Numbered from the stretch's first letter, positions 2,630 to 33,551 are shown. The stretch: 64,000 nucleotides of DNA from Candidatus Fermentibacteraceae bacterium (GCA_041750285.1 JBGSZS010000018.1:64048-128047), one strand, 5' to 3'. A program made the numbers and translations. Notes: generated from the sequence alone by a model not told the origin.

Positions 2630-3930
2630 AGGCTCTGCCTGACGAAAACGAACACCGTTTCCCTCGCGGAGACACGAACAGGAGCATGGGAGGAAGCCCG
2701 TCCGTTGACCGTTATGCCAACGGGCCAGGTTCCTTCCGGAACCACGACCCTTGCAACATGGATCTGCGCCGGCATGGTAAGCCACGCCCTGAGGTCGGCC
2801 CTGTCGGTAACCGCACCCACGATGCTCAAAACAAGGCCCACTGCGTCACCAACCCTGGCGTCGCCGCTGGCCTCTTCGGCTATCCCCTCGCCAAGCTCGG
2901 AAACACCCGCCTTCACTGCGGTCCTTGCGGCCGCCCTTAGAACGTCGCGTCCCGCATGATCCTGAAGGTTCTGCCTGGCAAGCGCGTTCATGTCCTGCAC
3001 GAGGAAGAATGGTTCCCTGTTCCCGGCAACCTCGGCCGTGGCGGTCACTGAACGCCTTGGGCGTTCGGATATTGCCGGCAGTGAGATGTTGAACACGCGG
3101 TCGTCGGTGACCACGGAATAGCTTTCCTCGTGCCGTGTCGCGATGCTTCCCGCCTCGAGCACGAGAACGATCTCGCCCATGCCGGCGCCGGATGGCGTGT
3201 TCCCGGTGTCGAGGCCGGGCCACCGTTCAGTGTACTCGGAGAGCAGGCTTTCGTAGCCCGTGGCCCTGGCAAGGCGCAAAAGATCGACCTTGAGCCTGTC
3301 GGGCACGGGTACGCCGTAGTTCCGGGCGTAGTCGCCCTCGTAGATCTGAAGCGCCAGCCGGTAGCTCACCAGGGCATCGGAAAGCTCTCCGTCCGCTTCA
3401 TACAGCATCCCCATGAAGTAGCGGATGAAGGCATCGTCAATGTACCTGTTGGGGTTCTCGCCGTAGTCGGAGTTGAACACGCGAAGTTTCTGGTTGACCC
3501 TTCGAGCCTCGACCAGGGCGTTCTCGTAGTCTCCCGTGGAGGCGAAACTCGCTGCAAGGGCATAGTTGATGAACACCTTTTCGTAGTCGGCGCCCCTGAA
3601 CTCCCTGGCAAGGTCGCTGGTGAGCAGGGCTGCCGCCTCCTGATCGAAAGCTGTGCCCCTCTGGTTGTCGCTGATGCTCTCCGCCCTCAGAAGAGCAGCC
3701 CTGGCAACCTGTTGGGCTCCGGCGTATCGGGCCAGGTTGCCAAGCTCCATCAGATAGAGAAGCCTGTCCCGGCCCGTGGAGTCGGGGAAAACCTGTCTGA
3801 GGCGGACCATTGCCTGCTGGGGCTGGTACGAATCGAGCATTCCCACCACGGGACGGATCGTTCCGGTATACCCCGCAGCGCACGCCAGCCCCAGCAGAAC
3901 GGTGGAGAAAGCCAGAAGCCTTCTTACCAC
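2626..3930 (-). CDS. exported TPR-like protein of unknown function (434 aa), partner of the LpoB-like lipoprotein
   Basis: N-terminal signal peptide MVRRLLAFSTVLLGLACA-AG. The central region has TPR-like helical repeats (YENALVEARRVNQKL, LALQIYEGDYARNYG). It overlaps the upstream gene by 7 nt and deoC by 4 nt. Confidence 0.6.
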   Translation of the reverse strand: MVRRLLAFSTVLLGLACAAGYTGTIRPVVGMLDSYQPQQAMVRLRQVFPDSTGRDRLLYLMELGNLARYAGAQQVARAALLRAESISDNQRGTAFDQEAAALLTSDLAREFRGADYEKVFINYALAASFASTGDYENALVEARRVNQKLRVFNSDYGENPNRYIDDAFIRYFMGMLYEADGELSDALVSYRLALQIYEGDYARNYGVPVPDRLKVDLLRLARATGYESLLSEYTERWPGLDTGNTPSGAGMGEIVLVLEAGSIATRHEESYSVVTDDRVFNISLPAISERPRRSVTATAEVAGNREPFFLVQDMNALARQNLQDHAGRDVLRAAARTAVKAGVSELGEGIAEEASGDARVGDAVGLVLSIVGAVTDRADLRAWLTMPAQIHVARVVVPEGTWPVGITVNGRASSHAPVRVSARETVFVFVRQSL

Positions 3931-22475: not shown

Positions 22476-22804
22476 AAAAGGTCCCCCAGACCCGGGGGGA
22501 TGCCCAGCCCCTGCATCTTCTCGCGGGCCAGCTCCCGGCTCCTCCCGACGGCGTCCTGCACCGCGGAAAGCACAAGGTCTTCCAGCATCTCCACATCGGA
22601 GGGGTCCACGGCATCAGGCGAGATGCGAATGCCCTTCAGCTCGCCCTGCCCGTTAACGACCGCCGTGACCATGCCGCCGCCGGATGTGCCCTCAACCGTT
22701 GCGGCCGCCAACTCCTCCTGTGCCTTCATCATTCCTGACTGCATCTTCTGGGCCTGGGCCATCATGTCCCGCATCTTACGGTTCACCGCGAACTCCTTCT
22801 CCAC
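22472..22804 (-). CDS. ybaB: nucleoid-associated protein YbaB/EbfC
   Basis: 110 aa, MMKQAQKMQ-type N-terminus and the usual dnaX-ybaB-recR synteny. Confidence 0.85.
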   Translation of the reverse strand: MEKEFAVNRKMRDMMAQAQKMQSGMMKAQEELAAATVEGTSGGGMVTAVVNGQGELKGIRISPDAVDPSDVEMLEDLVLSAVQDAVGRSRELAREKMQGLGIPPGLGDLF

Positions 22805-24134
22805 CCGGCTCGGGAATGAGGTCGAACAACCCTGCTATCTCCTTTATCTCTTCGTTTTCCCTGACCCGCGCGGTTTCTTCGGAGCCTCCTGCAGGGAGCG
22901 CGGGGTCTGCCTTGACCGGTTCGGGATCGGGAGGACCGTCGGACGGTGCAACCGCCGTTCCGACCTCGAGAGGCGCTGCCTCACCGCATGGAACGGCGGC
23001 CGTCGAGGGTCCTGCCGTCACCTTGGGGAGGTGGCTGAGATCGAACACGCTGGAAAGCCTTGAGGCGGTAAGCAGGGCGCCTTCGATCGTTATGCGTGGA
23101 TCGGCACCCTCCCTGATCTGCGCCGATGCGGCAGCCATGATCCTCATCACGTTGAGAACGGCGATGTCCGGCACACCGGCAACGGATGACCTCACAAGCT
23201 CCATCTCGCCCTCGGACAGGTCGACGATCCCCTTTTCCGCCCCTGTGGCAGCGAGCATCATGTTCCTCAGGAAGAGGGAAAAGGCCTCGTTGAACTCCTC
23301 GATGCTGTAGCCCCTGAGTGAAGCCTCTTCCAGAAGATCGAGGGCGGTCGAGGGGCTGGAGGTGAGAACCGCCCTGGCGACCCCCGCGAGAAGGTCGGAC
23401 TCGACCAGACCGAGCAGCCTGGAAACGGTGTCCGAGGTGATGTCGTTTCCCGCGAAGCTCACGAGCTGGTCCATGAGTGAAAGGGCGTCCCTCATGCTTC
23501 CGCCCGATGCCCTGCAGACAAGGCCAAGTGCGTCCCTGCTTACCGATATGCCCTCGCGCGCCGCTTCGGTTGCAATGTAGTCGGCCATCACGCGGAAGGG
23601 GATACGTCGGAAATCGAACCTCTGGCAACGGCTCAGGATGGTGGCCGGAACCTTCCGGGGTTCGGTGGTGGCGAATATGAAAACGACCTTTTCCGGCGGT
23701 TCTTCAAGGGTCTTCAGAAGGGCGTTGAAGGCTTCCTTCGTGAGCATGTGGACTTCGTCTATGATGTAGACCTTGTAGCCCCCCCCGGCTGCTGCGTACC
23801 TGGCTTTTTCACGAAGGTCCCGGATCTCGTCGATGCCTCGGTTGCTTGCTCCGTCGATCTCCAGCACGTCAAGGTGGGAGCCGGCGGTTATCTGGAGGCA
23901 TGCCGGGCAGACAAGGCAGGGATCGGGCGTGGGACCCTTTTCGCAGTTGAGGCCCTTGGCAAGGATTCGTGCGGTCGTTGTCTTGCCCACGCCCCGGGGG
24001 CCAGAGAAAAGGTATGCGTGACCTGCCCTGCCGGAGGCGATGGCATTCTGGAGGGTCACCGTTATGTGCTCCTGGGCGGCCACTTCGGTAAATGTCTGGG
24101 GGCGCCACTTCCTGGCGAAGACAAGGTAGCTCAT
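22776..24134 (-). CDS. dnaX: DNA polymerase III subunit gamma/tau
   Basis: MSYLVFARKWRPQTF...GPRGVGKTTTARILAKGLNC. The start is trimmed to the ATG at 24132-24134, because the upstream extension overlaps the SRP RNA. Confidence 0.85.
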   Translation of the reverse strand: MSYLVFARKWRPQTFTEVAAQEHITVTLQNAIASGRAGHAYLFSGPRGVGKTTTARILAKGLNCEKGPTPDPCLVCPACLQITAGSHLDVLEIDGASNRGIDEIRDLREKARYAAAGGGYKVYIIDEVHMLTKEAFNALLKTLEEPPEKVVFIFATTEPRKVPATILSRCQRFDFRRIPFRVMADYIATEAAREGISVSRDALGLVCRASGGSMRDALSLMDQLVSFAGNDITSDTVSRLLGLVESDLLAGVARAVLTSSPSTALDLLEEASLRGYSIEEFNEAFSLFLRNMMLAATGAEKGIVDLSEGEMELVRSSVAGVPDIAVLNVMRIMAAASAQIREGADPRITIEGALLTASRLSSVFDLSHLPKVTAGPSTAAVPCGEAAPLEVGTAVAPSDGPPDPEPVKADPALPAGGSEETARVRENEEIKEIAGLFDLIPEPGGEGVRGEP

Positions 24135-24184
24135 GCGGCTCTCCCTTCGGGGGAAGGTGAAGAGGGACTCACGCGGGAACATGG

Positions 24185-24292
24185 AACACCCGGGCGGAAA
24201 CGGGGTGGCCGCGTCACCCGAAGGACACCGCTTACGGCTGCTGCCTTCCGGCCCTGACCGGGTTCGCGGGCTTCCGCCGCGCGGGCCCCGCT
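24185..24292 (-). ncRNA. ffs: signal recognition particle RNA (small 4.5S type)
   Basis: The minus-strand sequence ACCCGGUCAGGGCCGGAAGGCAGCAGCCGUAAGCGG matches the conserved SRP RNA domain IV (E. coli CCAGGUCAGGUCCGGAAGGAAGCAGCCAAGGCAG). A closing helix forms between GGCGGAAGC and GUUUCCGCC. It sits in the canonical position upstream of dnaX. Confidence 0.65.
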
Positions 24293-24369
24293 TCCGTATG
24301 CCCGGGTGCCGCCGCCGACTCGTTGGAACCGGCAGCACCGGAGAATATATGGAAAAAGGGCAAAACCGG

Positions 24370-25964: not shown

Positions 25965-28052
25965 TCAGCCCGTGAAAAGGACCCTTCCACCGCCGGACAG
26001 CACGAGCCAGCCTTCGGAGCCCTCTTCCACGCGCACGCCCCCGTCGGATGCCACCAGAGCCTCAGCCCTGACCGTCATCCCGCGGTTCAACCGCATCATT
26101 CGCGTCCGGCCGGCGGCAAAGAACAGGAGTTCGCCCTCGGCGGTTCCGGAAAGCCTGCTGAGCGAAGGCGCCTGTTCGAGACCGAGGGATTCATGTGAAA
26201 GTCCCGATGGTCTGACCGCAAGCATGTCGAACCTTGCCGTCATGCCTTCGGTGTAAGGCATGCGGACCGCCGACTCATACCCCTGGCCCAGAAGAATGGT
26301 TCCGGTGCCCGTGAGGGTTGTTGCGCCATGCTCATCGGATGAGAAGCATACTTCCGAGTCCATCGCCACCACAAAGGCGGGCCGGACCGCAACCGACCCC
26401 TGATGCAGGTGAAGGATTGTGATCTCGGCGTTCTCGACGGGATGAACCGTGTACAGGCCGGATGGAGCCGGCACTTCAACGGCGGGGACAGGCTCTGCTT
26501 CGGTGGCCTCCGTCTTCCCATCTTCAGTGTCTGCCGTTTCTTCCGCGGGTGGTTCCTCCGAAGCGGGCGCCTCTTCGCGAACGGCTTCGGGTTCAGCCAC
26601 AGGTTCGGGTTCGGGTTCGGCTTCCGGACCCCCGAAGATGGAGGTGAGGACCTCTTCCTCATTCACAGGCTCCACGGCGGGAGGCTCCTCCGCAACGGGC
26701 GCCTCCTCGGGAACCGCTTCGGGCTCGGCCACTTGCTCGGGTTCGGCTTCCGGTTCGGTTTCGGCTTCAGGGCCTCCGAAGATGGCCGAGAGATCGGCCT
26801 CTTCCTGCTTCACAGGCTCCTCGGCGGGTGGCTCCACGGCGGGAGGCTCCTCCGCAACGGGCGCTTCCTCGGGAACCGCTTCGGGCTCGGCCACTTGCTC
26901 GGGTTCGGCTTCCGGTTCGGTTTCGGCTTCAGGGCCTCCGAAGATGGAGGTGAGCACCTCTTCCTCATTCACAGGCTCTTCGGCGGGAGGCTCCTCCGCA
27001 GCGGGTGCCTCTTCGGGAACCGCTTCGGGCTCGGGTTCGGGCTCGGGTTCGGGTTCCGGGCCTCCGAAGATGGAGGTGAGCACCTCTTCCTCATTCACAG
27101 GCTCTTCGACGGGTGGCTCTTCCGCAACGGGCGCCTCTTCCTGCACGGTTTCGGAGGGAGCACCCTCTGAAGGCCTTCCGGTGTCGAAGACCGATGCAAG
27201 ATCAAGGGTTTTCTCTTGTGGAGCTGTTGCAGGCCCGGAATCACCGGGCTCGGACTCCCGGGTCCGGCCCGAGCCGCTGAAAATCGAGGAGAAGTCTATC
27301 GGACTTTCGAGATCGGCAGCCGCGGCCCCGGCATCGGCTGGCTCGGCCAGGTCGGCTGCCTTTTTGAAAATACCGGCAAGGTCATCCTTGGAGGATGCAG
27401 GCTTCGCTTCGAAGGATGAGCCGCCGAATATCGAGTCGAGGTCGAGCGCGGGACGGCTCTCCGCGGGTTTCTCCTCCTCGCCGGAGGGTATGCCCATGTT
27501 GGAGAGAAGCTCGGCAACGCCCTCGTCTTCCTGCCTGCCGTTGAGCCCCATGTCAGTGAGAAGGCGGTCGACGCCGGAGTCGGCTGCCGCGAACTCCTCT
27601 TCGGTGCCGGGAACGTCGGGGAAGACCTGCGAACCGTTCGTCACGGTTTCAGGGGTCTCCGGGGCCTGTTCGGGTGAACCTTGCTTGTCGATCCTGGTTA
27701 TGGCCACCTTGGCGCCGTGGTGGCCCGGGTTGATCTCGGCCACAACACGGTAGTTGTCGAGGGCAAGTTCGAAGTCGCCGAGTTCCTCGAGAACCTGCCC
27801 GAGCCTGAAATGAGTGTATATGTTGTTTATCTCGAGGGTCGAGAGCGCTTCGAGCTGTTCGCGGGCCTCTTCCCACAGGCCGAGGCACATGCAGGCATCG
27901 GCCAGAAGGCTTCTTGCCCTGGGTCTTGTGCCGATGAGATCCGTGGCCTTGAGAAGAAGCTCTCGTGCCTGTTCGGCCAGACCCCTTGCGAGATAACCCT
28001 CGGCATCCCTGCACAGGGCTTCGTAGGTATCGCTGGTGAAAGAATCTGCCAT
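25965..28052 (-). CDS. TPR-repeat protein with a long acidic Pro/Glu-rich tandem-repeat linker and a C-terminal globular domain
   Basis: N-terminal TPR repeats (EALCRDAEGYLARGLAEQARELL, NYRVVAEINPGHHGAKV). About four 48-54-aa repeats containing VLTSIFGGPEAEPEPE. A C-terminal roughly 170-aa domain. The antisense ORFs 26403..27170 and 26449..27753 are artefacts of the repeats. Confidence 0.7.
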   Translation of the reverse strand: MADSFTSDTYEALCRDAEGYLARGLAEQARELLLKATDLIGTRPRARSLLADACMCLGLWEEAREQLEALSTLEINNIYTHFRLGQVLEELGDFELALDNYRVVAEINPGHHGAKVAITRIDKQGSPEQAPETPETVTNGSQVFPDVPGTEEEFAAADSGVDRLLTDMGLNGRQEDEGVAELLSNMGIPSGEEEKPAESRPALDLDSIFGGSSFEAKPASSKDDLAGIFKKAADLAEPADAGAAAADLESPIDFSSIFSGSGRTRESEPGDSGPATAPQEKTLDLASVFDTGRPSEGAPSETVQEEAPVAEEPPVEEPVNEEEVLTSIFGGPEPEPEPEPEPEAVPEEAPAAEEPPAEEPVNEEEVLTSIFGGPEAETEPEAEPEQVAEPEAVPEEAPVAEEPPAVEPPAEEPVKQEEADLSAIFGGPEAETEPEAEPEQVAEPEAVPEEAPVAEEPPAVEPVNEEEVLTSIFGGPEAEPEPEPVAEPEAVREEAPASEEPPAEETADTEDGKTEATEAEPVPAVEVPAPSGLYTVHPVENAEITILHLHQGSVAVRPAFVVAMDSEVCFSSDEHGATTLTGTGTILLGQGYESAVRMPYTEGMTARFDMLAVRPSGLSHESLGLEQAPSLSRLSGTAEGELLFFAAGRTRMMRLNRGMTVRAEALVASDGGVRVEEGSEGWLVLSGGGRVLFTG
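26590..27150. repeat. intragenic tandem repeat array (period about 141-162 bp, about 4 copies); copies at 26668..26784 and 26830..26946 are identical except for 1 nt
   Basis: Direct comparison shows ggctccacggcgggaggctcctccgcaacgggcgc[c/t]tcctcgggaaccgcttcgggctcggccacttgctcgggttcggcttccggttcggtttcggcttcagggcctccgaagatgg repeated with a 162-bp offset. Confidence 0.75.
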
Positions 28053-28170: not shown

Positions 28171-28263
28171 ACTGGCGGAGAGGGAGGGATTCGAACCCTC
28201 GAGAACGCAAGCGCCCTACACGGTTTCCAACCGTGCTCCTTCGACCGACTCGGACACCTCTCC
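28171..28263 (-). tRNA. tRNA-Ser (anticodon GGA), long variable arm, CCA encoded
   Basis: GGAGAGGUGUCCGAGUCGGUCGAAGGAGCACGGUUGGAAACCGUGUAGGGCGCUUGCGUUCUCGAGGGUUCGAAUCCCUCCCUCUCCGCCA. Confidence 0.85.
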
Positions 28264-28474: not shown

Positions 28475-28503
28475 TTGAAACTTTCCTATACATTCCATAT
28501 GGT
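28475..28503 (+). promoter_or_regulatory. sigma70-like promoter (TTGAAA -35, 17-nt spacer, TATGGT -10) upstream of the candidate selenoprotein gene
   Basis: tTTGAAActttcctatacattccaTATGGTaagg in an AT-rich stretch, 35 nt upstream of the ATG at 28538. A strong RBS GAAGGAGGTG lies 5 nt before the ATG. Confidence 0.35.
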
Positions 28504-28537
28504 AAGGGTTGGTTTTTTACATTGAAGGAGGTGGTTG

Positions 28538-29539
28538 ATGAAAAGATTCGTTATCCCCGCTCTTCTCGTGCTCGCGGCATTCTCGCTCGCGGCGGAGAGA
28601 ACAGTTCTCTGGGAGTACTTCACCCAGACTGGTTGAGGCACCTGCTACAGCAGCTGGTCAGCTGTTAAGTCCACGATTCAGCCCTTTGTCACCAGTGGAG
28701 ACGTCGCTCCCCTCTACATCTTCTACAACGGCCCCTACGCCAACGCATTCTGCTCAGGCAGGTTCAGCTTCTACGGTGTCACCGCCACACCCACGGTCAA
28801 GATCGACGGCCTTGCCGCCAGCTACACTCCAAGCGCATATCCCGCCGCGATAAACAGCCGTCTCGCCGTACCGAGCTATGTCAGCATCGACGCAAACATG
28901 GTCGGAGGCGCGTCGGGTGGCACCGGTTACTACAGCATAACCGCCGAGCAGGACCTGGGCGTCAGCGGCCAGATCAAGGTCTGGTCCGTTGTGATCCAGG
29001 ACAACTTCATCGCCGCCGGCAGCTGGGGCGGATACACCGGCATGGAGATGATGTGGATGCCGGTCGCCTTCCCTCTCGGCGCCGCCGGACAGGTCATCAG
29101 CTTCACCGGCCCCTACCCCCAGACCGTGCAAGTACAGGGCACCTACACGCTCAACCCCACGATCCACATCTTCAACAACCTCAAGGTCGTCACCTACGTC
29201 CAGCTCGGCAGCGGCACGCGTGAAGTTCTCAACGCCAACTACATTGACCTTCCCGACACCTCAACCGGCGTGTACGGCGAAGAGGCCGCACAGGTCGGCG
29301 AGTCCGCACAGCTGTTCGTCGGCCCCAACCCCTGCAGGGGTCAGTTCACCGTCTCGTCCGTTCTGCCCCAGGGCCAGACCGGAACCGTTTCGGTGTACGA
29401 CATCAGCGGAAGGGTCGTCCAGAGCTTCCCCGCGGGCGGAACCAGCAGCGCCGTCATCGAAGAGACGGGGCTTTACTTCGTACGCATGACCACCAGCACG
29501 GGTCTGGTCGAGAACCGTCAGATCGCAGTCGTAAGGTAG
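28538..29539 (+). CDS. candidate selenoprotein: secreted thioredoxin-fold protein with a U-G-T-C redox motif (in-frame TGA at 28634-28636 read as Sec) and a C-terminal T9SS/FlgD-like sorting domain (333 aa)
   Basis: The ATG at 28538 with a strong RBS encodes the signal peptide MKRFVIPALLVLAAFSLAAERTVLWEYFTQTG, followed by TGA, then GTCYSSWSAVKSTIQPFVTSGDVAPLYIFYNGPYANAFCSGRFSFYGVTATPTVKIDG.... This is colinear with thioredoxin (a beta1 strand, a [C/U]xxC motif, then a cis-Pro PT motif). No further stop occurs for 300 codons, and the frame runs into the listed ORF 28898..29539. The C-terminal QFTVSSVLPQGQTGTVSVYDISGRVVQSFPAGG...GLYFVRMTTSTGLVENRQIAVVR is a T9SS-type C-terminal domain. Confidence 0.55.
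28647..28668 (+). promoter_or_regulatory. bacterial SECIS-like hairpin 11-13 nt downstream of the in-frame UGA
   Basis: mRNA UGA-GGCACCUGCU-ACAGCAGCUGGUCAGCUGUU. A 7-bp stem (A16-U33 to U22-A27, numbered from the U of UGA) carries an apical loop GGUC with G24/U25. In the E. coli fdhF SECIS the apical loop is GGUC with G23/U24, 1 nt closer to the UGA than here. Confidence 0.45.
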
Positions 29540-31105: not shown

Positions 31106-32968
31106 TCAGCGGACGATGGCCAGGCCGAGCCTGTGCGCAGAGCCGCCCACGGTGAGCACCACCATGTAAACACCTGAAGCCACGGGCTGCCCGGACATGT
31201 CACGGCAGTCCCAGAAGAACGATTCGCCATCGATGGGAGCCCTGTAGGTTCCCGCGGACAGACCGCTTCTGTTCTGGGTGTGAACGGGAACGCCGTCGAG
31301 AGTAAACACGGCCAGGGAAACGTCGGACGGCCCCTTTTCAACGTCGAAGCCGACGTGGACGAACCCCGAGGCCGGATTGGGAAAGACCGAGGGCGCAAGG
31401 CCCGAGGGTCCGGCAGGGTCCACGAAAAGGCAGACCTCGGTGCCGCTTTGACCCAGAACGCCCTGAACCGTCATGGGATGCCCCCACTGACCCGGCGCGC
31501 CCGTCACCGTGAATTCGCCGAAAAAGCCGGGTTCGGAAGCGAACCAGCCCATGCCGTTGGTCACCGCTTCCGTCATGGTCTGGCCGTTTTCGATCTCGAC
31601 GGTGTAGCCGGTCAGTGCTTCGCCAGTATCGGACCTTCTGACCCTGCCCGTGACCGACCGGTGCATCATCGCTGCGGTGGCGTCGATCACACCCCACCCG
31701 TAACCGTTGTCGGGTGAGGTGCTCTGTGTGGACGTGGCCTTCAGGGCTTCGGAAATCCGCATCATGGACCATTCGGGGTGGGCCTGGCTTATCGCCGCGA
31801 ACGCCGATGACACGATCGGGGTTGCGAAGGAAGTGCCATTGCCCGAGGAGTACCCGCCGGAAAGGTTTGCGAAAACGGTCATCTCACCCCTGGCGCAGGC
31901 ATCGGGTTTCATGCGGCCGTCTGCAGTGGGGCCGCGGCTGGAGTACGCCGAAAGTGTGCCGAGGCTGTTCACCGAACCCACCGCAAACACCGAGTCTCCG
32001 TCGGAGGGGGCGACGAGGGTGGTGTCTTCCGGGCCGTTGTTGCCCACTGCGTTCACCACGATCAGCCCCCGCGATGCCGCGATGTCGGCCGCCACGGTTG
32101 TCACAGCGGTGTTGCCGTCAAGCTGCCAGGGCTCGTACCAGTCGATGTAGCCCAGGCTGCTGCTTACGATTTCAGCGCCGTTCTGTTCGCACCACTCAAG
32201 CCCGAAGACCCAGAAGTCCTCCTCCTGCTGGTACTCGTCGCCGGTGTCTTCCGTGCGCGCCAGAAGGAAGGAGGCGTCGGGCGCCCCGCCCACGTAAAGC
32301 CCAGGGCTGTCGCCGGCGATGATCGAGAATACAGCGGTTCCATGGATGCCCGTGGTCTCGGAGTCGCCCTCTTCGTAGCCGACATACCCGTCGCCGCCGA
32401 CGAAATCCCACGTTCCGAGGACCTGGGCGCCGGCGAAGCAGTCGTGGCCGAGTTCGAAACCCGAGTCCAGAACACCCATCACAGTCCCGCCCCCCGTGAA
32501 CCCCCTCTCGTGAAGCCCCGTGATGCCGGCCTGCTGAAGCTGCCCGAGTGACAGGCCATGGGGGTCGGGCTCGCCGGAGAACTGGGACGGGGTGTACACG
32601 GAACGCGCCACGGGCCGCACCGAGGCGACGAAGGGAAGGGCACGCACGGCCGCGAGCGCCCGGTCGTCGAGAACCACGCTGCACGCGTTGAGGTAGCGGG
32701 AAACACCCGCTACCGGGGCAAGGGCCTCGGCTGCAACCGTTTCGGTGTATACGTGAAAGGGTTCGAGATCGTAGACATCGGCCTGCAGGGCACCCACGGA
32801 AGCCCTTCTTGATGCCGAGGGGCCCTGTGCGATGAGGTCTGACGCGGCTTCCAGCCGGTGCCCGACCATGGGGCCGCGGTCGGAGAAGAAGACCCAGTAG
32901 CGCACCGGGGTGCTTCCCGGCGATGCGACCGGGAGAAGGAGCACAAGAGCCGTTGCCAGGAGCTTCAC
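31106..32968 (-). CDS. secreted subtilisin-family (S8) serine peptidase with a T9SS/FlgD-like C-terminal sorting domain
   Basis: Catalytic triad contexts VLDSGF (Asp), HGTAVFSIIAG (His) and GTSFATPIVSS (Ser). The C-terminus GVYMVVLTVGGSAHRLGLAIVR is a T9SS-type C-terminal domain. The GTG start at 32966-32968 gives the signal peptide VKLLATALVLLLPVASP. Confidence 0.8.
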   Translation of the reverse strand: MKLLATALVLLLPVASPGSTPVRYWVFFSDRGPMVGHRLEAASDLIAQGPSASRRASVGALQADVYDLEPFHVYTETVAAEALAPVAGVSRYLNACSVVLDDRALAAVRALPFVASVRPVARSVYTPSQFSGEPDPHGLSLGQLQQAGITGLHERGFTGGGTVMGVLDSGFELGHDCFAGAQVLGTWDFVGGDGYVGYEEGDSETTGIHGTAVFSIIAGDSPGLYVGGAPDASFLLARTEDTGDEYQQEEDFWVFGLEWCEQNGAEIVSSSLGYIDWYEPWQLDGNTAVTTVAADIAASRGLIVVNAVGNNGPEDTTLVAPSDGDSVFAVGSVNSLGTLSAYSSRGPTADGRMKPDACARGEMTVFANLSGGYSSGNGTSFATPIVSSAFAAISQAHPEWSMMRISEALKATSTQSTSPDNGYGWGVIDATAAMMHRSVTGRVRRSDTGEALTGYTVEIENGQTMTEAVTNGMGWFASEPGFFGEFTVTGAPGQWGHPMTVQGVLGQSGTEVCLFVDPAGPSGLAPSVFPNPASGFVHVGFDVEKGPSDVSLAVFTLDGVPVHTQNRSGLSAGTYRAPIDGESFFWDCRDMSGQPVASGVYMVVLTVGGSAHRLGLAIVR

Positions 32969-32987
32969 GGGGTGCGGGGCTGCCCCG

Positions 32988-33551
32988 TCAGATCTCGGAC
33001 TCGTCGAACCACTGCCAGATGTACCATTCGCCGTCTTCATCGGGCCTGCAGATGAACTGGGCGCTTCCCGAAGCCCTGTATCCCGTCACGCCGCCGGAAC
33101 CGCCGATGCTGGTGTAGACCTTGAGGTCGAACGTTCGGGGAAGACAGTAGCTTATGCCGGAAGGGTCACCCATCCAGGGGTACTCCTGGGTGCCCGTGAA
33201 GGTGAGCTCTATGAGCTCGACACCGTTGAACATGGCCTGGTGGAACTCGTCTTCCTTGTCGAGCCCCCAGTAAGTGTCGATTATGCCGTCGCCGTTGTAG
33301 TCATCCCAGTCCTGCTCGAGGAGGTGGAACTCGAAGTCGTCGCGGAAGCACTGCATGTAATGGTCGTGGTCGCGGTTGACGTAGGCCATCTGAAGGTTTG
33401 CGAGAACCTTCCAGGCGCTGTCGGCCGGGCTGTAGAAAAGGGGCGGTTCGGTTGGGTCGGGGTCGGCATCGGGGCTGAAAAGACAGCCCGTGAGCGCGAG
33501 AAAAGCTGATATCGTTATCAGCAGGGGTTTTACCGATGCTCCTGTCTTCAC
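32988..33551 (-). CDS. hypothetical lipoprotein
   Basis: MKTGASVKPLLITISAFLALTGC lipobox. The body is acidic and Trp/Tyr-rich. Confidence 0.5.
   Translation of the reverse strand: MKTGASVKPLLITISAFLALTGCLFSPDADPDPTEPPLFYSPADSAWKVLANLQMAYVNRDHDHYMQCFRDDFEFHLLEQDWDDYNGDGIIDTYWGLDKEDEFHQAMFNGVELIELTFTGTQEYPWMGDPSGISYCLPRTFDLKVYTSIGGSGGVTGYRASGSAQFICRPDEDGEWYIWQWFDESEI

Follow-up and report, generated by a model that had tools for sequence, protein, structure and literature searches.

A candidate selenocysteine insertion element behind an in-frame UGA in a thioredoxin-fold gene family of Fermentibacteria

A DNA stretch of 64,000 nucleotides from Candidatus Fermentibacteraceae bacterium (GCA_041750285.1, JBGSZS010000018.1:64048-128047), referred to below as the window and numbered from its first letter, carries a gene whose reading frame contains a UGA codon that is closely followed by a short RNA stem-loop. 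In the initial annotation, made from the sequence alone, this stem-loop was likened to the selenocysteine insertion sequence (SECIS) of bacteria. The comparison of homologous loci described here makes it very probable that the stem-loop at 28649-28666 is a bacterial SECIS, letting the in-frame UGA be read as selenocysteine (Sec).

The gene and its in-frame UGA

The peptide around the UGA reads ...WEYFTQTG-U-GTC-YSSWSAVK..., and the UxxC motif directly follows a typical signal peptide (Table 1). The Shine-Dalgarno sequence places the true start of the gene upstream of the UGA. The gene is present in a single copy, and no other credible selenoprotein gene was found when the window was scanned for an in-frame TGA between open flanks combined with a redox motif and a hairpin.

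Table 1. Features of the predicted selenoprotein gene and its upstream region (T9SS, type IX secretion system)
Feature	Position	Strand	Evidence
Promoter-like site (TTGAAA, 17 nt, TATGGT), 5' of the gene	28475..28503	+	Consensus scan 9/12, weak pattern match only
Shine-Dalgarno sequence AAGGAGGT, 5 nt ahead of ATG 28538	28525..28532	+	Direct sequence reading
Predicted selenoprotein gene, 333 codons including Sec33, TAG end at 29537-29539	28538..29539	+	Translation, frame conservation
N-terminal signal peptide MKRFVIPALLVLAAFSLAA	28538..28594	+	Translation; kept in homologues; cleavage site judged by eye
Thioredoxin-fold domain, residues ~20-115, UxxC at the N-terminus of helix 1, cis-Pro P85	28595..28882	+	
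In-frame UGA, predicted Sec33, residue 1 of the U-G-T-C redox motif	28634..28636	+	
Partner Cys36 of the UxxC motif	28643-28645	+	
Candidate SECIS hairpin: 5' arm 28649-28655, loop GGUC 28656-28659, 3' arm 28660-28666	28649..28666	+	Folds, covariation, synonymous-site constraint, fit to the bacterial SECIS consensus
Omp28-like beta-sandwich domain, residues ~116-240	28883..29257	+	Weak Pfam match, profile matches
T9SS type A C-terminal sorting domain, residues 263-324	29324..29509	+	Pfam PF18962 E = 2.3e-7; TIGR04183 E = 1.2e-8

A protein search returned 152 relatives, and all of those with a source name come from metagenome-assembled genomes of Fermentibacteria. The set of loci was obtained by scanning one genome per GTDB species, which gave 48 loci (L001-L048) in 40 assemblies, all named sources again belonging to Fermentibacteria/Hyd24-12 (Aegiribacteria, Sabulitectum, Fermentibacter). 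Six-frame analysis yielded 58 copies of the motif, the window's own included. The codon at the site is TGA in 55 of these copies, which come from the window and 37 other assemblies, a Cys codon (TGC or TGT) in three, and TAA or TAG in none. Reading frame and peptide are kept both before and after the TGA, and synonymous positions vary freely. The Cys homologues (P0101, L038, L039 and L040) have continuous full-length frames, and P0101 contains TCGPC in place of the window's G-U-GTC. A word-indexed homology search with the N-terminal domain alone returned two fragments only.

Many genomes carry tandem arrays of two or three paralogues, found in L001 (1893-2882 and 3001-4005), L007 and L017 (three copies each), L019, L024, L025, L031, L043 and L048. 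The chromosome OY970370.1 likewise has three copies of the gene, and the nearest relative of the window, at 87 % identity, is in DIXM01 (UBA6080). The assembly CAZRXU01 contains both a UGA-bearing, presumptive Sec form (L036) and a Cys form (L038). Three broken copies, in L043 (2947-3528 and 4001-4225) and L045 (3001-3441), are open across the TGA and then end early, the remainder lying in another frame; they are either frameshift assembly errors or decaying copies.

The immediate surroundings of the UGA also look constrained. The base on its 5' side is T at all 55 sites. GGT stands before the UGA in 50 of them, and the codon entropy at Gly32 is zero. The base on the 3' side is never T (G in 31, A in 17, C in 7), and Ser at residue 34 is encoded by AGC in 15 of 15 cases and by UCN in none. 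This context (28631-28639 in the window, compared across L001-L048) may reflect selection against efficient termination by release factor 2 or for a particular context in the ribosomal P site.

The codon could have been recoded to something other than Sec, through a reassigned code (Trp or Gly), near-cognate read-through, or a SECIS-like insertion of Cys by a tRNA-Sec-like tRNA acting with a SelB paralogue. This explanation is improbable, even though the incorporation of Sec at this site is something we infer and the database entry P0121, a fragment, has Trp at the position of the UGA. The Trp is most simply explained by the gene caller having chosen code 4 on a 729-bp contig. Furthermore, TGA is the terminal stop of many genes of the family and is therefore still a stop codon, not a reassigned one, and the site aligns with an invariant Cys rather than with Trp or Gly; together these two facts rule out reassignment of the code. 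Twenty other large open reading frames (ORFs) of the window match housekeeping families (RecA, DnaX, MurA, Dxr, RseP, FabF/FabH, PlsX and others) without any reassignment. A Sec-like system inserting Cys at UGA is conceivable, but no positive sign of it was seen. A canonical tRNA-Sec gene is present in a related genome. It lies at L014:80-172 on the minus strand, 2.9 kb upstream of a family gene whose protein is 57 % identical, and is flanked by genes for a sugar kinase and a TonB-dependent receptor. ARAGORN assigned to it the anticodon TCA (UCA in the RNA), and its score with the Rfam model RF01852 was 75.7 bits against a gathering score of 47. No selA, selB or selD was found within 10 kb of this tRNA-Sec locus.

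Folding and conservation of the hairpin

Counted from the U of the UGA, the stem is formed by the pairs A16-U33, G17.U32, C18-G31, A19-U30, G20-C29, C21-G28 and U22-A27 and is closed by the loop G23 G24 U25 C26, so that the hairpin begins 12 nt past the UGA. A 7-bp stem with a GGUC loop had been described at this place in the initial annotation, and its sequence and pairing were found to be as described; of the sequence string quoted there, the pairing positions are correct, but the string is 20 nt long and begins at nt 14 instead of nt 16. The hairpin is seen in the minimum-free-energy (MFE) and centroid folds of 42-, 47- and 60-nt segments, with the GGUC loop placed at nt 23-26 in the MFE fold. 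The MFE of the element is -9.7 kcal/mol for the 42-nt segment and -9.9 kcal/mol for the 47-nt segment.

Taken as a single sequence, the hairpin is no better than chance expectation. A hairpin at least as good by the SECIS model follows 8.8 % of all 1922 UGA triplets in the window, and the tight geometry of the family is found after only 0.47 % (9/1922) of them. No Rfam match was obtained at the hairpin site when the window was scanned at gathering thresholds; only a signal recognition particle (SRP) RNA and four tRNAs were found. Since the single-sequence test is weak, the question was settled by comparison of the homologues.

Conservation of the hairpin across homologues is far beyond chance. 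At 53 of the 55 TGA sites a hairpin with a 4-9-bp stem and a 3-4-nt loop containing GG is located 17-20 nt past the UGA. In an ungapped alignment of 53 sites, used for the covariation counts, 92.5 % of the cells of the seven proposed pairs are base-paired; sliding the 3' arm by 1-3 columns lowers this to 17-64 %. Both partners have changed in 23 cells versus 4.1 in shuffles, and none of 500 shuffles reached 23. Compensatory changes occur in four of the seven pairs. At the outer end of the stem, A16-U33 frequently fails to pair, and the core consists of the inner 6 bp; RNAalifold recovered only 5 upper-stem pairs and no conserved lower stem.

The exchanges themselves are informative. C-G is replaced by U-A where a synonymous change of AGC to AGU goes together with GCU to ACU and hence with Thr in place of Ala (L002, L004, L013 and L026). 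A-U is replaced by G-C where AGC has become GGC (Ser to Gly) and GCU has changed synonymously to GCC (L015, L018, L021 and L025). The clade with the peptide SSAGAV has U-A swapped for G-C and a CGGG loop, and L033, L034 and L044 have other stems, shifted by 1 nt, with AGGC or AGGU loops. The copies in L048, the most distant ones with 24 % identity, form an 8-bp stem of unrelated sequence, closed by a GGA loop, at equal distance from the UGA. The loops of the family are GGUC, GGCC, GGAC, GGGC, CGGG, CGGC, AGGC, AGGU and GGA, GG alone being universal.

Constraint is equally visible at synonymous positions. Codon entropy is 0.59 bit at S38, 0.63 bit at S39, 0.20 bit at S41 and 0.59 bit at A42, against a mean of 1.75 +/- 0.34 over 129 comparable columns, and all four stem codons fall in the lowest 4 %. 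The codons used are AGC for 34/38 and 35/40 of the Ser residues at the first two positions, TCA for 31/32 at the third and GCT for 39/44 of the Ala residues. Such low synonymous entropy indicates that selection acts on the RNA.

The hairpin lies wholly within the coding sequence of a fairly conserved helix, and it might be only a passive by-product of the peptide Y-S-S-W-S-A-V encoded by palindromic codons (CAGCTG GT CAGCTG), with no function as an RNA element. The chance-level result for the single sequence is in line with such an origin, which is nevertheless very unlikely. It does not account for the strong synonymous constraint at the stem codons, nor for compensatory pairs in which a synonymous change is joined to an amino-acid replacement. 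Moreover, clades with the peptides SSAGAV, STAGAV and PAVESQV keep a hairpin at equal distance from the UGA, and it is retained in orthologues and paralogues where the encoded peptide differs; conservation in orthologues with differing flanking codons was one of the checks proposed in the initial annotation. Two outcomes had been named there beforehand as counting against the proposal, an MFE fold without a suitably placed G/U-containing loop and lack of conservation in orthologues, and neither occurred. The Cys forms also argue against a by-product, as no consensus-type hairpin was found at the corresponding place in the three of them. A hairpin scan of all loci revealed no similar hairpin in their other genes.

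The Cys forms have secondary structures of their own. In L038 a 9-bp hairpin (3089-3110) covers nt 17-38 past the Cys codon, and its loop, CUCA, is without G; the 42-nt segment has an MFE of -14.5 kcal/mol and z = -1.32. A strong hairpin is located at the matching place in L040 and further downstream in L039. These hairpins could be a relic or a coincidence.

Protein architecture, annotation and neighbouring genes

The Pfam and NCBIfam models detected in the window protein only the T9SS type A sorting domain and, below threshold, Omp28 (E = 0.09); no NCBIfam selenoprotein model matches it. The AlphaFold2 model of the Cys homologue P0101 (predicted local distance difference test score 86) has three domains: first a thioredoxin fold, in which helix 1 begins with CxxC and the conserved cis-Pro loop is present, then a beta-sandwich, and last a C-terminal domain (CTD). 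The best match of this model in PDB is HBP35 of Porphyromonas gingivalis (5Y1A; Foldseek E = 1.4e-13, template modelling score 0.57-0.60). A profile of the family matches HBP35 5Y1A (9.5e-9), Omp28 2R2C (1.2e-5), thioredoxins (positions 17-65) and T9SS CTDs. The protein combines a signal peptide, a thioredoxin-like redox domain, an Omp28-type beta-sandwich and a T9SS C-terminal domain.

An exhaustive HMMER search extended the number of relatives to 356. Eight full-length ones were scanned, and all eight have CxxC and a T9SS tail; seven match Omp28, three of them above the Pfam cut-off. An alignment of 28 proteins, reaching down to ~19 % identity, shows no variation at Cys36, at Pro85 or at the Sec position, the last being Cys in the 27 distant homologues. 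The T9SS cargo proteins of the Omp28 family (PF11551) include full-length homologues at 19-37 % identity with equal domain order and invariant C33, C36 and P85. The Omp28 proteins examined all have CxxC, whereas the Fermentibacteria clade has UxxC and the hairpin. In other thioredoxin-fold UxxC selenoproteins (Trx, Grx, DsbA-like and Prx-like thiol:disulfide oxidoreductases), too, Sec stands in for the first Cys of CxxC where helix 1 begins, and UxxC thioredoxin-fold proteins are the commonest kind of bacterial selenoprotein (PMC13188914).

HBP35 shares with the window protein the thioredoxin-like redox domain, the beta-sandwich and the T9SS C-terminal domain; it differs in having Cys instead of Sec, and sequence identity is ~16 %. 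HBP35 is secreted by the T9SS, contains a thioredoxin motif, binds hemin and showed thioredoxin activity in assays (PMC2907840, PMC3120885). By this likeness, the family is predicted to act as a surface thiol/disulfide oxidoreductase.

Public annotation of the gene is systematically at fault. Nearly all of the 152 relatives cover only 64-87 % of the query and are therefore N-terminally truncated. Among the public gene calls (P0001-P0120) proteins are truncated at varied false starts, and at L049 (9761-9859 and 10001-10759) the gene is split into a 32-aa and a 252-aa ORF. As annotated, these would be T9SS cargo proteins without signal peptide and active site.

The same gene calls, with the shortened proteins and the 32-aa and 252-aa ORFs, are what would be expected if the TGA were a true stop, either in a pseudogene or through a sequencing error, or because a 32-codon upstream ORF is followed by a downstream gene with an internal start. 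This has a negligible probability. The TGA is present in 55 genes, 37 other assemblies among its sources, with both flanks protein-constrained in one frame; the downstream starts that were called vary between homologues; and the Cys homologues are continuous. A T9SS cargo protein requires a signal peptide, and both the signal peptide and the Shine-Dalgarno sequence are located upstream of the TGA. The comparative data thus effectively refute a pseudogene, a sequencing error and two separate genes.

Several other features were observed in the neighbourhood. A tRNA-Ser(GGA) gene (28173-28263, minus strand) lies just upstream of the predicted selenoprotein gene, and the same arrangement in L001, L002, L004 and L044 indicates conserved synteny. 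In the neighbourhood of the gene there is also a 695-aa ORF (25965-28052, minus strand) with several near-identical acidic Pro/Glu-rich repeats (...EPEAVPEEAPVAEEPPAEEPVNEEEVLTSIFGGPE...), opposite which there are long spurious ORFs. On the other side, a 644-aa ORF (31106-33040, minus strand) has the look of a subtilisin-type peptidase (GTSFATP motif) and a T9SS-like C-terminal tail, as judged by eye; if so, it is probably a second T9SS cargo close by. A bacterial small SRP RNA (24195-24293, minus strand, 73 bits) is located directly upstream of the dnaX ORF (22776-24338) and overlaps its called start. The real start of dnaX is probably further downstream since the family match begins at residue 69.

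Fit to known SECIS elements and meaning of the family

The consensus of bacterial SECIS elements used in bSECISearch comprises a loop of 3-9 nt, a stem of 4-16 bp, a G within the first two loop positions (G[G|U]NN), a distance of 16-37 nt between UGA and loop, and an MFE of at most -7.5 kcal/mol (PMC13188914). The element in the window, with a 4-nt loop, a 7-bp stem, GG at the start of the loop and a spacing of 19 nt, is within all these limits, and it lies inside the ORF right after an in-frame UGA. Whereas the consensus model allows the full range of spacing, the Fermentibacteria family keeps to 17-20 nt at 53 of 55 sites, and compared with the model the sequence and position of the element vary unusually little over the whole phylum.

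A close known counterpart is the SECIS of E. coli fdhF, the sequence of which was verified in fdhF of 5419/5426 E. coli genomes. Both elements are situated within the coding sequence directly after the Sec UGA, and each is capped by a GGUC tetraloop. The distance from the UGA to the upper stem-loop is 11 nt in fdhF and 12 nt here, and the loop occupies nt 22-25 in fdhF, so that the likeness to within 1 nt claimed in the initial annotation holds, the loop in the window being 1 nt further from the UGA. In contrast to fdhF, the family has no conserved lower stem.

Several observations weigh against the interpretation of the stem-loop as a SECIS. The tRNA and Rfam scans of the 64-kb window, and the 20 large ORFs examined in it, revealed no selA, selB, selC or selD. 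The hairpin alone has a free energy of -7.0 kcal/mol, just above the cut-off of -7.5 kcal/mol that is meant for the whole element, and the element falls within the limit because flanking pairs add to this value. The segment MFE, with z = +0.6 versus dinucleotide shuffles, is not thermodynamically exceptional; this test has little power here, since the experimentally established fdhF SECIS also gives only z = -0.91 in it. The G/U pair of loop positions emphasized in the initial annotation is present in the window hairpin, but the U varies within the family. Two homologues (L016 and L047) have an A.C mismatch in the stem. Finally, the bulged U17 of fdhF, a contact needed by E. coli SelB (PMC8659212), is absent, the helix being a perfect 6-7 bp in the window and nearly all homologues. 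Without the bulged U17 the element cannot strictly be classed as an fdhF-type SECIS; on the comparison of sequences it qualifies as a bacterial SECIS by the general definition.

If the stem-loop acts as a SECIS, decoding would proceed as follows. When the ribosome reaches the UGA at 28634-28636, the C-terminal domain of SelB would bind the hairpin through its GG tetraloop, by analogy to E. coli and Moorella, and would bring Sec-tRNA(Sec) into the A site, competing there with release factor 2. Sec would go in as residue 33 and make up, with Cys36, a UxxC redox centre where helix 1 of the thioredoxin fold begins. The product would be exported by means of its signal peptide and, like HBP35, secreted or anchored at the surface via its T9SS C-terminal domain. 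Binding of SelB, incorporation of Sec and export are all proposed here by analogy with known systems.

The hairpin might alternatively serve mainly as a pause or regulatory element, for example by coupling expression to selenium supply, a role that is compatible with that of a SECIS. Every bacterial SECIS ties expression to selenium, and Sec and Cys paralogues are found together in several genomes (L036 and L038 in one assembly) and could be selenium-dependent alternatives. However, the geometry and the conserved GG of the loop are those of a SelB-binding site and nothing independent speaks for regulation, which as the chief function is hardly to be expected.

With the stem-loop read as a SECIS, the mechanism appears to be the standard bacterial one, and the new part would be the family as a selenoprotein. 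No link was found in the searchable literature between selenocysteine or selenoproteins and Fermentibacteria, T9SS (type IX secretion) cargo or Omp28, and a 2026 inventory of prokaryotic selenoproteins has no Omp28, T9SS or DUF1223 entry. On balance, it seems that the family is a previously undescribed selenoprotein family and would represent the first T9SS-exported, cell-surface thioredoxin-fold selenoprotein (HBP35/Omp28-like). It would be used across the candidate phylum Fermentibacteria, often as two or three tandem paralogues, and decoded via a minimal, bulge-less SECIS, nearly fixed in sequence, that dictates part of helix 1. In essentially all public records the family would then be mis-annotated as truncated.

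Fermentibacteria are common in anaerobic digesters and sediments, and the finding indicates that they decode selenocysteine. It would also mean that a selenol-based redox centre is located at the cell surface or beyond it, where few bacterial selenoproteins are known to act. The 55 sites with their covariation constitute a natural data set for what a non-enterobacterial SelB recognises, and the picture of recognition that they suggest is a perfect 6-7-bp stem that lacks the bulged U, is capped by a GG tetraloop and lies at a constant distance. The family may likewise show how a SECIS constrains the protein sequence that overlaps it.

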